The translations under genes were made by a program, and so were the position numbers. Under the pieces are notes generated by a model. The model worked only from the letters and a program-made list of their open reading frames with translations, was not told the DNA's origin and did no database searches. From Myxococcota bacterium (GTDB lineage: Bacteria; Myxococcota_A; UBA796; CAJQPC01), in the NCBI GenBank assembly GCA_036012755.1, contig DASCPX010000040.1, positions 1 to 64,000 of the forward strand: a stretch of DNA of 64,000 bases. The letters run 5' to 3'. Below, one piece after another: positions 7,728 through 64,000 of this stretch. How positions within the stretch are numbered: position 1 is the first letter of the stretch; every line of letters begins with the position of its first letter.

Positions 7728-8234
7728 GTGCTGCTCTTCGCCCTGGCCTGCTCGCCCGGGAAGATCGTGCTCACCAACGCCGACGGCGAGCCGATCGGCG
7801 ACGACACCGGAGTAGGCGACAGCGGCGACACCGGCGACACCGGACCCGACGGGGACCCGGACTACAGCGTCTGGTCCGGCGAGCGCGAGATCCAGACCGA
7901 GGACGGCTGCTTCGAGACACTCTACGAGGACGGCTTCGAGCTCGAGTCGGACTGGGAGTACTACGACGAGGTCGTCGACTACTGCCCCGAGTGCCAGCAC
8001 TTCTACTACGCCGAGGTCAGCCCGGAGGTGGTCTGCGAGGTCTCCGTCGCCAACGAGGTGATCCGCGGTGTGGTCTTCGACGAGGACTCCGCAGAGGTCT
8101 GGACCTTCTACCCGGGTGAACCCCGCGCGCTGGACTCCAACGCAGCCTTCGACGGCTGGTCGATCGACTACGACTACGACCTCTACGACGGCTACATCCT
8201 CATCGAAGGCCGGGTCGAGTTCCCCGCCCTCTGA
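7728..8234 (+). CDS. hypothetical acidic lipoprotein
   Basis: MLLFALAC lipobox, DTG-rich linker, Cys-containing domain. Confidence 0.75.
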   Translation: MLLFALACSPGKIVLTNADGEPIGDDTGVGDSGDTGDTGPDGDPDYSVWSGEREIQTEDGCFETLYEDGFELESDWEYYDEVVDYCPECQHFYYAEVSPEVVCEVSVANEVIRGVVFDEDSAEVWTFYPGEPRALDSNAAFDGWSIDYDYDLYDGYILIEGRVEFPAL

Positions 8235-8256
8235 TCGGCCGCGATAAGCCTTCGGA

Positions 8257-8330
8257 CCGCTGCGGCTGGCCCAGAGGCCTGCAAACACACCGCAGAACCT
8301 GATCCGGCTCGAGAAGGCGGAGGAAAGCGG
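8257..8330 (+). ncRNA. TPP riboswitch (divergent)
   Basis: P1 CCGCT/AGCGG, P2 GCGG/CCGC, P3 GGCC/GGCC and the conserved GAACCTGATC..GG...GCG.AGG core, directly upstream of thiC. Confidence 0.75.
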
Positions 8331-8331
8331 A

Positions 8332-9903
8332 ATGTCCGACAACGGCACCTTCAACAACGGCGCCCGGAGCGCCCGGAAGATCGAGGTGGACGAGCTCGCT
8401 GTGCCCGCGCGCGAGCTGCGCCTGTCCAACGGCGATGTCCACCACCTCTACGACGTCAGCGGTCCTCAGGGCTGCGACCCTCGCCAGGGGCTCCCCGCGC
8501 GACGCCGCGACTGGATCCGTGCTCGAGAGGGTCACCCCGACATCACCCAGCTGCACTACGCGCGCTCCGGTGTGATCACGGAGGAGATGCGCTTCGTCGC
8601 CATCCGCGAGAACGTCGACCCGGAGTTCGTCCGCAGCGAGGTCGCCGCGGGCCGCGCCATCATCCCGGCCAACAAGAACCACCCGGAGCTGGAGCCGATG
8701 ATCATCGGCCGGGCCTTCCTGGTGAAGGTCAACGCCAACATCGGCAACTCCGCCGTGAGCTCCTCGATCGAAGAAGAGGTGGAGAAGCTCCGCTGGAGCC
8801 TGCGCTGGGGCGCTGACACGGTGATGGACCTGTCCACGGGCAGCGACATCCACGAGACCCGCGAGTGGATCCTGCGCAACAGCCCGGTCCCCATCGGCAC
8901 GGTGCCCCTCTACCAGGCGCTGGAGCGTGTCGGCGGCGTGGTCGAGGATCTCGACATCGAGCTCTTCCTCGACGTGCTCCGCGAGCAGGCCGAGCAAGGC
9001 GTGGACTACTTCACCATCCACGCCGGCGTGCGCCTCGCCCACATCCCGCTCACCGCCGAGCGAGTCACGGGCATCGTCTCCCGCGGGGGGGCGATCATGG
9101 CCAGGTGGTGCCTGTCCCACCACCGCGAGAACTTCATCTACGAGCACTTCGAGCGCATCTGCGAGCTGATGAAGGAGTACGACGTCTCCTTCTCCCTCGG
9201 CGACGGCCTGCGCCCCGGATGCATCGCCGACGCCAACGACGCCGCGCAGTTCGCCGAGCTCGAAACCCTCGGGGAACTCACGCAGCTGGCCTGGAAGCAC
9301 GACGTCCAGGTCCTGATCGAGGGGCCGGGCCACGTGCCCTTGCAGAAGATCCGCGAGAACATGGACCGACAGCTCGCGGCCTGCTTCGAAGCGCCCTTCT
9401 ACACCCTCGGACCGCTCGTGATCGACATCGCTCCCGGCTACGACCACATGGCCTCGGCCATCGGCGCCGCCGTCATCGCGAGCCAGGGCTGCTCGATGCT
9501 CTGCTACGTCACGCCCAAGGAGCACCTCGGCCTCCCGGACAAGGACGACGTGAAGCAGGGCATGATCGCCTACAAGATCGCGGCCCACGCGGCGGACGTC
9601 GCGAAGGGTCACCCGGGCGCCTCCGACCGGGACGATGCCCTGTCGAGGGCCCGCTTCGAGTTCCGGTGGGAGGACCAGTTCGACCTCTCGCTGGACCCGG
9701 AGACCGCGCGGGCCTACCACGACCAGACCCTGCCGGCGCCCGCCGCGAAGAGCGCTCACTTCTGCTCGATGTGCGGGCCCAGGTTCTGCTCGATGCGCAT
9801 AAGCAGGGACATCCGCGACGCCGCCGAGCGCGAGGCCGGAATGGCCCAGATGTCCGAGACCTTCAAGGAGTCCGGGGGGACGCTCTACCTTCCCGCGAAG
9901 TAG
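8332..9903 (+). CDS. thiC: phosphomethylpyrimidine synthase
   Basis: [58 protein letters not shown]. Confidence 0.98.
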
Positions 9904-9905
9904 AC

Positions 9906-62903: not shown

Positions 62904-62924
62904 CGGCATGGGCTTGGAGGAGAC

Positions 62925-63374
62925 ATGACACTCGCATTGGCGCTGCTCGGATGCGCCAGTTGGGTCGACGGGACCTGGCTCTTCGAGATCGATCAGAACG
63001 CAGACCTCGGCGGCACCTGCGCCGAGGACGCGACCTTCGGCCAGACGGCCATCGGGTCGAGCTACCAGTTGGTGGACATCTTCGAGGCCGCGGACGGCAG
63101 CGTCATCGTCTTCCTCGACGAGCTGCTCGACGGCACCAGGGACGGCAGGCACCTGACCGCCGACTGGGAGCGCACCACCGACTTCGACGACGGGAGCTCC
63201 TCCTGGGACGCCGTCGAGGTCAACGGCGACTTCGCAAAGGGCATCCTCACCGGCCAGATCACCGACTCCAGCCGCGACATCGACGCGGACGGAAACGAGA
63301 CCAGCTGCGTGTTCAAGTTCAGCTTCGAGGCCGAGCAGATGGCCTCGGACGACGACGCTTTCGTGGGGGACTGA
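62925..63374 (+). CDS. hypothetical lipoprotein
   Basis: GGAGG SD; MTLALALLGC; DGTWLF. Confidence 0.75.
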   Translation: MTLALALLGCASWVDGTWLFEIDQNADLGGTCAEDATFGQTAIGSSYQLVDIFEAADGSVIVFLDELLDGTRDGRHLTADWERTTDFDDGSSSWDAVEVNGDFAKGILTGQITDSSRDIDADGNETSCVFKFSFEAEQMASDDDAFVGD

Positions 63375-63377
63375 GAG

Positions 63378-63905
63378 ATGAAACGACTGACACTGGCGAT
63401 CTTGGCCGTCGGCCTCACCACCGGCTGCACCGTCACAAAGTACGACGGCACCTACATCATCTTCCACACCCTGACGAAGAACACCGTCGACCCGGATGAC
63501 ACCGACATCGGCAAGGAGGAGCGTGGTCTCGCCACCATCGCGACGACCACCGAGGGCACCCTGGTGATGGACTGGGGCGGCGTCGTGATGGTCGGAGAGA
63601 TGGGAGACAAGAAGGCCTTCAGCGTCGAGCGCGAGGTCGGGCTCGATACCTCCGACGAAGACTGCGCGACCCGCGTCGACAAGCAGACCATCTCCGCCGA
63701 CGGCCTGTTCACGAAGGACGGCGGTGTCACCGCCACCATCGACGACCTCGCCAAGTACACCGTCAAGGACTGCGACCCCCAAGACGACGTCGACGAGACG
63801 TGGGAGTACTCCTGGGACCTCACGGGCGTGCAGATCAACGCCAACGACGGCAACCACCTCGGTGACGACGCGAACTGGGGCTACGCCCCCAACCCGGTGT
63901 ACTGA
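63378..63905 (+). CDS. hypothetical lipoprotein
   Basis: MKRLTLAILAVGLTTGC; DGTYII. Confidence 0.75.
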   Translation: MKRLTLAILAVGLTTGCTVTKYDGTYIIFHTLTKNTVDPDDTDIGKEERGLATIATTTEGTLVMDWGGVVMVGEMGDKKAFSVEREVGLDTSDEDCATRVDKQTISADGLFTKDGGVTATIDDLAKYTVKDCDPQDDVDETWEYSWDLTGVQINANDGNHLGDDANWGYAPNPVY

Positions 63906-64000
63906 TGCTCGTGCTCTCGCTGATCGGCTGCCTCGGCGGCGGCCCCTGGGACGGCACCTGGCTCATCCGCGAGGAGTACCCGGGCACCCAGGAAAACGAC
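63905..64000 (+). CDS. hypothetical lipoprotein (partial)
   Basis: TGATG-coupled; MLVLSLIGC...WDGTWLI, similar to the 62925 N-terminus. Confidence 0.6.
   Translation, partial: MLVLSLIGCLGGGPWDGTWLIREEYPGTQEND

Follow-up and report, generated by a model that had tools for sequence, protein, structure and literature searches.

Do proteins whose first cysteine lies only 7-12 residues from the initiator methionine, with no lysine or arginine before it, carry genuine export and lipidation signals? The question is raised by a 64,000-nucleotide stretch of a Myxococcota genome (positions 1-64,000 of contig 40, hereafter the window; genome G000, 6.73 Mb, 68.4% GC, 96% complete), for which a first-pass annotation had listed 18 open reading frames with such leaders and suggested a minimal export and lipidation code. 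All 18 listed N-termini were found at their coordinates and strands, each with its cysteine at residue 7-12 and free of K/R up to that point. In canonical lipoproteins this cysteine stands at about residue 15 or later. The leaders are probably true minimal Sec signals processed by the ordinary Lgt, LspA and Lnt enzymes, a reading drawn from sequence comparison and given a probability of about 0.7.

Genome-wide excess of short leaders

Genes were called with a dicodon model trained on the genome, starts being chosen by coding score and a start-codon prior and thus blind to signal peptides. From 5867 called genes, the 5267 that were strong and at least 100 amino acids long were used. The short-leader pattern, defined as methionine, 4-10 uncharged residues and [GAS]Cys, was present at 676 of these 5267 starts (13%), versus 169 of 88834 internal in-frame start codons (0.19%) and 186 of 157678 shadow-frame start codons (0.12%) taken as nulls. 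The frequency of cysteine along the first residues, a check that the first-pass annotation had proposed, peaked at residue 8 (5.8%, versus 1.2% in the protein body). The pattern bars charged residues by design, and a charge-unfiltered set of 805 genes, with the first cysteine at 6-12 and G, A or S before it, was therefore also counted; K/R was present in 44 of these, where other genes over the same lengths would give about 53%.

The cysteine of the short leaders lies at residue 6-12 with a mode of 8, and the consensus is M-L-L-L-L-L-A-C followed by a tether of Pro, Asp, Glu and Gly. Leucine occupies lipobox position -3 in 434 of the 676 leaders and -2 in 423, the latter outside the second position of the standard lipobox, [LV][ASTVI][GAS]C (PMC8048626). 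When genes were selected by first cysteine alone, free of the pattern, the -1 residue was G, A or S in 82% of the 820 genes with that cysteine at 7-10 and in 34% of those with it at 20-44. The 676 proteins form 500 similarity groups, 443 of them singletons, and therefore do not stem from the expansion of a single family. The genome has 114 canonical basic lipoprotein leaders, making the short form about six times commoner. Over the first 20 residues of the mature region the mean net charge behind short leaders is -3.2 and the charge is negative in 91%, figures that cover short leaders only. Leaders of the signal peptidase (SPase) I type are affected as well, with 283 uncharged versus 110 basic ones in G000 by rough rules.

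Support for the start codons

A start was considered forced where no in-frame ATG, GTG, TTG, CTG, ATT, ATC or ATA occurred back to the upstream stop. This was found for 220 of the 676 short leaders; an in-frame stop lay at most 5 codons upstream in 134, the start overlapped the stop of the previous gene in 159, and a -10-like box was present at leaderless distance in 137. At least one of these features (forced, coupled or boxed) applied to 426. A minority of the short starts may be miscalled.

Among G000 genes without a close upstream neighbour, the -10 box (TANNNT) preceded 81 of 309 short leaders versus 2 of 67 canonical ones (p 3e-6). The contrast was weak in small samples from relatives (short 10/73 versus canonical 4/65). 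General leaderless transcription was considered as a cause of the trait and rejected: on non-lipoprotein genes the box was found in 20 of 334 cases in genomes rich in short leaders versus 9 of 323 in poor ones, a weak difference, and the strong G000 contrast was not replicated. TANNNT also stands at leaderless distance upstream of 211 of 2133 other G000 genes.

Evidence for export

Outer-membrane proteins offer a view of the leaders that is independent of the lipobox. SPase I-type signals sit on BamA and two other Omp85 proteins, TonB receptors and TolC-like proteins. BamA begins MIHLLLAFWIALA-Q and has no ATG, GTG or TTG within 30 codons upstream. Uncharged leaders of 10-11 residues are also present on three TonB receptors, as well as on TolC-like proteins and a LolA-family protein; for some of them the frame is closed by a stop 3-11 codons upstream. 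Altogether, six TonB receptors were examined, and a basic n-region is lacking in three of these, in three of five TolC-like proteins, in BamD and in both LolA-family proteins; it is retained in a number of further barrels and binding proteins. Since barrels have to pass through the inner membrane, uncharged leaders of 10-13 residues function in export, provided that the starts are correct. A peptide-binding ABC protein begins MIWLVAC.

Cysteine parity was examined by counting the cysteines after the lipobox cysteine in proteins having further ones. The count was even in 432 of 611 short-leader proteins (71%) and 70 of 96 canonical lipoproteins (73%), versus 773 of 1645 proteins of a cytoplasmic proxy (47%; p 3.5e-24), and in 51 of 68 and 45 of 58 proteins from relatives. 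Such parity is expected where cysteines pair in disulfides in an oxidising compartment and the first one takes no part.

BamD itself (YfiO family, G000:C149:39842-40588) apparently lacks the lipobox cysteine and has an SPase I-like site instead; the cysteine is apparently missing from BamD in nearly all of 30 loci (L091-L120), L091 having a T-G-C lipobox.

Short leaders within the window

Five of the 18 window starts are forced (7728, 34090, 35292, 42934 and 62925), and four use GTG (7728, 33621, 36629 and 46074). The four stop/start overlaps that the first-pass annotation had noted, at 27267, 29786, 32515 and 63905, are real and are joined by a fifth at 36629; the box it had reported 6-7 nucleotides upstream of several starts is present as TANNNT at four (12106, 33621, 35292 and 42934). 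The starts at 28850, 28908 and 33621 are less certain, each having an ATG, GTG or TTG at most 25 codons upstream.

Two divergent genes lie only 26 nucleotides apart, so that lengthening either start runs into the other gene. One encodes an arylsulfotransferase-like protein with the leader MLGLVLVLA-C10 (12050..12079, minus strand; gene 10730-12079) and the other a DUF885 protein with the leader MALLLS-C7 (12106..12126, plus strand; gene to 13863). Between them, overlapping -10-like boxes occur within the near-palindromic AGGATAGCCT (12089..12098), namely TAGCCT on the plus strand, 7 nucleotides before the ATG at 12106, and TATCCT on the minus strand, 9 nucleotides before the ATG at 12079, making this element a candidate bidirectional leaderless promoter.

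The remaining short leaders are as follows. MLLFALA-C8 (7728..7751, plus; gene to 8234) follows a Shine-Dalgarno-like GGAGG. The gene of MIWLLA-C7 (27247..27267, minus; gene 26788-27267) is coupled through ATGA to that of a PD40 propeller protein with the leader MFLYALA-C8 (28827..28850, minus; gene 27264-28850), whose competing ATG lies 11 codons upstream. A vWA/MIDAS-like protein with MFLALTLA-C9 (28908..28934, plus; gene to 29786) is followed by the TGATG-coupled gene of MLLLFA-C7 (29786..29806, plus; gene to 30418). A heparinase II/III-like protein carries MMILLLA-C8 (32492..32515, minus; gene 30440-32515, ATGA-coupled) and a GH88 hydrolase MVLFLTA-C8 (33598..33621, minus; gene 32512-33621), the latter with its -10 box 7 nucleotides upstream and an alternative GTG at -7 codons that would yield an uncharged Cys15 leader. 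These two coupled genes (30440-33621), each with Cys8, are a candidate surface glycosaminoglycan-degrading pair.

MLLFVLS-C8 (34090..34113, plus; gene to 34491) has an in-frame stop 6 codons upstream, and MPMLWTLLA-C10, on an esterase or polyhydroxyalkanoate-depolymerase-like hydrolase (35263..35292, minus; gene 34501-35292), has both a stop 3 codons upstream and a -10 box. An M16 peptidase with MMLLFAIMVG-C11 (36629..36661, plus; gene to 38068) overlaps the stop of its partner M16 gene, and in this pair (35337-38068) the first gene has an uncharged SPase I-like leader and the second the Cys11 lipobox leader. Further along are the forced and boxed MLLFWVG-C8 (42911..42934, minus; gene 42560-42934), MFILLALPA-C10 (42994..43023, plus; gene to 43824), MVLFVWMGG-C10 (44724..44753, minus; gene 43944-44753) and MIMILIALSLG-C12 (46039..46074, minus; gene 44755-46074). 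An uncharged Cys15 leader, MGTWTLFAIFLTSG-C (47343..47387, minus; gene 46083-47387), was absent from the first-pass list.

Near the end of the window (62925-63931) are three consecutive small lipoprotein genes whose mature parts all start 'DG(T)W/Y'. The first has MTLALALLG-C10 (62925..62954, plus; gene to 63374) and the third MLVLSLIG-C9 (63905..63931, plus; TGATG-coupled, a 140-amino-acid gene that extends past the window end). The gene between them has the basic leader MKRLTLAILAVGLTTG-C17 (63378..63428, plus; gene to 63905), in agreement with its earlier description as canonical, and serves as an internal control; a canonical-leader gene flanked by two short-leader genes makes a natural matched set. 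The equally short SPase I-like signals of the first-pass annotation were also recovered, all uncharged and with inferred cleavage sites: MMWLLAGLAMA (52851..52883, minus; gene 51699-52883), MFLSLISLSLA (14611..14643, plus; 79-amino-acid gene) and MLALLSSLSLA (59953..59985, minus; 456-amino-acid gene).

Distribution among relatives

The trait was followed across genomes with a DNA pattern for M-[FLIMV]5-A-C, a scan of one leader length only in which matches were not checked as starts. At least nine matches, here called rich, were present in 19 of 61 genomes of the order (maximum 90; 42 in G000). Outside the order none of 71 genomes was rich or exceeded 4 matches, and a reversed-pattern control gave 0 matches in the order. 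Gene-level samples gave short/canonical counts of 18/4 (G051), 7/1 (G039), 10/1 (G001) and 10/4 (G032), and short-poor samples of 1/9 (G015), 0/6 (G028) and 2/13 for five same-class outgroups together. The short-leader trait is limited to a single order, where its occurrence is patchy. In a quick SecY tree the 23 order rows formed one clade (Shimodaira-Hasegawa-like approximate likelihood ratio test, SH-aLRT, 100) with rich genomes scattered inside, which suggests that leaders in the order were repeatedly shortened, or the shortening repeatedly reversed. Use of minimal export and lipobox signals across the lineage, as the first-pass annotation proposed, is supported by the counts at starts, the barrels and the relatives.

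Best-hit pairs with relatives (n=566, not reciprocal) included 9 in which the relative's leader is canonical and that of G000 short, 20 with short leaders in both and 1 of the reverse kind. Among the 120 listed homologues of the DUF885 protein encoded at 12106, 52 had a lipobox by an in-house rule, and 28 of these 52 had a short uncharged leader in database gene calls; their leaders form a continuum from Cys7 uncharged to Cys20 basic. The database protein record for the 12106 gene itself begins at an internal methionine, and the leader is lost, the one observation bearing on the first-pass expectation that standard predictors would miss such proteins.

Processing enzymes

G000 encodes five Lgt, two LspA, one Lnt and two LolA-family genes and, by motif, single SecA, SecY, YidC and LepB proteins. 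One of the Lgt-family genes lies in the window (2396..3196, plus) and scores over the cut-off for Pfam LGT and below that for TIGR00544. A tandem lspA-lspA-lgt-lgt cluster is found at G000:C59:99967-102645, and like pairs occur in several members of the order whatever their leader length.

Expansion of these enzymes was rejected as a cause. Lgt is present in 2-6 copies across the order, uncorrelated with pattern counts (rho -0.07, 61 genomes), and as regards gene numbers the earlier proposal of an adapted Lgt/LspA machinery is not supported; LspA has 1-2 copies in the order and 1-4 outside. No LptE match was found in this 96% complete diderm genome, where divergence or incompleteness is possible, and no 16S gene was found in the assembly. 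The genome also has a tRNA-Sec call and two genes with peptide deformylase motifs.

Changes in SecY and SecA

The SecY alignment contains six columns diagnostic for the order, one of which corresponds to E. coli I187, a member of the SecY isoleucine ring (PMC2171872). All 23 order rows have Ala (14) or Ser (9) at this position; 33 outgroup rows have Ile (27), Met (5) or Thr (1). SecA has twelve such columns, including E. coli L372. The 16 order rows all carry Tyr there, and rows from outside the order Leu (12) or Val (1). L372 is reported, in work from 2007 by Gelis, to line the signal-binding groove. Loci L254 and L259 were left out of the SecY rows and G016 and G067 gave no SecY match; for SecA, G061 gave no match and the second G076 copy (L290) was left out. 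The equivalents of I82, I86, I191, I278, I408, F67, S68, Y134, H484 and A373 are unchanged in G000. Under a loose rule, seven SecA and two Ffh columns separate rich from poor genomes, at variable positions that are not interpretable. A second SecY in G052 (L183, G052:C138) keeps Ile187 and groups with same-class outgroups; it is likely bin contamination (8%).

With prl-type mutations, proteins are exported even when the signal is defective or missing (PMC5963308, PMC3101351), and SecY ring substitutions give super-active translocons (I191S, +2.4 log2; PMC13537251). SecA A373, in the stem, is a Prl site whose substitution produces Prl phenotypes (bioRxiv 10.1101/2021.08.31.458331).

Alternative explanations

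A dedicated route for short leaders, through an Lgt/LspA paralogue pair or co-translational targeting by the signal recognition particle (SRP) and YidC, with canonical leaders on the ordinary route, is unlikely. The five Lgt and two LspA genes with their tandem cluster would suit it, as would the occurrence of canonical and short leaders side by side in the genome and the very hydrophobic character of the leaders, SRP substrates being very hydrophobic; however, Lgt copy number ignores the trait, adjacent lgt/lspA pairs also occur in the zero-match genomes G010, G017 and G005, SPase I-type leaders are shortened as well with one LepB by motif, and the Ffh M-domain is without a diagnostic column. 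Somewhat less probable again is a non-classical fate after export, the leader staying uncleaved as a one-leaflet anchor or the cysteine being modified without LspA cleavage. Leaders of 6-8 residues fall far short of the pathway's signal, which is described as spanning the membrane (PMC8048626), and their frequent leucine at -2 is non-standard, but the enrichment of G, A or S at -1 is the constraint expected from LspA, and canonical lipoproteins of relatives end in L-A-C too. Lowest in probability as a general account is annotation artefact, with real starts upstream and ordinary basic n-regions, although this may hold for a minority of genes. A composition of 68% GC leaves long open frames upstream, in which some leaders have a possible start that would bring K/R. 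Against this stand the forced, stop-bounded, overlapping and boxed starts, the recovery of canonical leaders by the same caller in short-poor relatives and class outgroups, and the agreement of database gene calls on short starts in the 28 DUF885 homologues.

The preferred reading, minimal Sec signals handled by the ordinary enzymes and permitted by a changed translocon, has several observations weighing against it. For 212 of the 676 leaders, another possible start lies at most 20 codons upstream and would bring K/R, and a start caller based on coding score may favour downstream starts. Both Pal-like proteins and 114 other lipoproteins retain canonical leaders, 14 of the 61 order genomes have no M-[FLIMV]5-A-C match at all, and parity indicates an unpaired cysteine and says nothing of a lipid on it.

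The translocon part faces more of them. No SecY column separates short-rich from short-poor genomes (7 versus 12 rows), and the zero- or one-match genomes G023, G034, G052, G028 and G008 have the same SecY change. The SecY chain of PDB 3dl8, presumably from Aquifex, is likewise Ala at this ring position, so that the ring change is not unique to the order. The SecY and SecA changes amount to a single evolutionary event, lie on a long branch and were singled out post hoc from 6 (SecY) and 12 (SecA) diagnostic columns. For the ring residue, I187M gave merely +0.47 log2, and I187A/S were not among the variants found in the available part of the supplement (both PMC13537251). The adapted Sec machinery that the first-pass annotation had suspected accordingly finds partial support: SecY I187A/S and SecA L372Y each distinguish the order, but its short-poor members carry both. 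On these grounds, and because an unrelated solved SecY is also Ala at the ring position, the two changes are permissive at most.

Proposed mechanism

On the reading as minimal Sec signals, each leader would consist of methionine and a leucine-rich h-region of 5-9 residues that closes with L-L-A-C in the SPase II type and with a small-residue site in the SPase I type, the basic n-region having presumably been deleted. The precursor would be taken by the single SecA and SecY. Its orientation might be set, in place of the basic n-region, by the N-terminal Met, which is retained, together with the strongly acidic beginning of the mature part. In the Lgt pathway the cysteine is modified at the outer leaflet (PMC8048626), and a leader entering one leaflet could therefore suffice, with no need for a bilayer-spanning helix. 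The cysteine would then be diacylglycerylated, the leader cleaved and the new N-terminus acylated by the ordinary Lgt, LspA and Lnt set.

SecY I187A/S and SecA L372Y, the latter beside the Prl site A373, may have relaxed signal proofreading across the order, letting single genes drift out of their n-regions to a very different extent in each lineage. A relaxed translocon is the preferred permissive cause and also the weakest step, and is proposed tentatively. The full scenario is more doubtful still: a natural prl-like translocon would have become fixed in the order, so that neither a basic n-region nor a full-length h-region was needed any longer, and several lineages would then independently have cut most signals of their secretome to 6-12 uncharged residues, often with leaderless transcripts. 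If it holds, two point changes would suffice for MLLLLAC-type precursors to be exported and lipidated in E. coli, and the minimal Sec/Lgt/LspA signal would have to be redefined.

Comparison with known signals

The tripartite signal with a basic n-region is textbook knowledge, and its natural minimum length is seldom questioned. A literature search found no description of the short uncharged leader trait, most subscription journals lying outside its coverage, and the available parts of PMC8082313 and PMC11495043 do not mention it. Leaders of 6-13 uncharged residues on about 13% of genes, and on BamA and other barrels, amount to hundreds of natural tests of what SecA/SecY, Lgt and LspA need, with the canonical leaders of close relatives on the same proteins as matched controls; the two fixed translocon changes are open to a cheap, direct experiment in E. 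coli. Counts of the order's secretome and lipoproteome may be too low where gene callers or length rules lose the leaders.

The short leaders resemble the canonical Sec/SPase II signal (E. coli Lpp type; PMC8048626) in a hydrophobic stretch ending in [GAS]-Cys, a polar Pro/Asp-rich tether, the presence of Lgt, LspA, Lnt and LolA-family genes and the same cysteine parity. They differ from it in the missing basic n-region, a cysteine at 6-12, a -2 residue that is mostly Leu and a length too short for a bilayer-spanning helix. With the canonical Sec/SPase I signal (PMC5963308) the corresponding leaders share a hydrophobic core and, after it, a site of small residues and a polar beginning of the mature part, but are about 9-15 residues long and uncharged. 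Both kinds thus appear to work like Sec/SPase II or SPase I signals, yet fail two defining canonical features, the basic n-region and length. The translocon changes of the order are comparable to the E. coli prlA/prlD suppressors in falling on the SecY pore-ring residue I187 and next to the SecA Prl site A373; they differ in being natural and fixed, and the available parts of PMC2171872, PMC5963308, PMC3101351 and bioRxiv 10.1101/2021.08.31.458331 name neither I187A/S nor L372Y as prl alleles.

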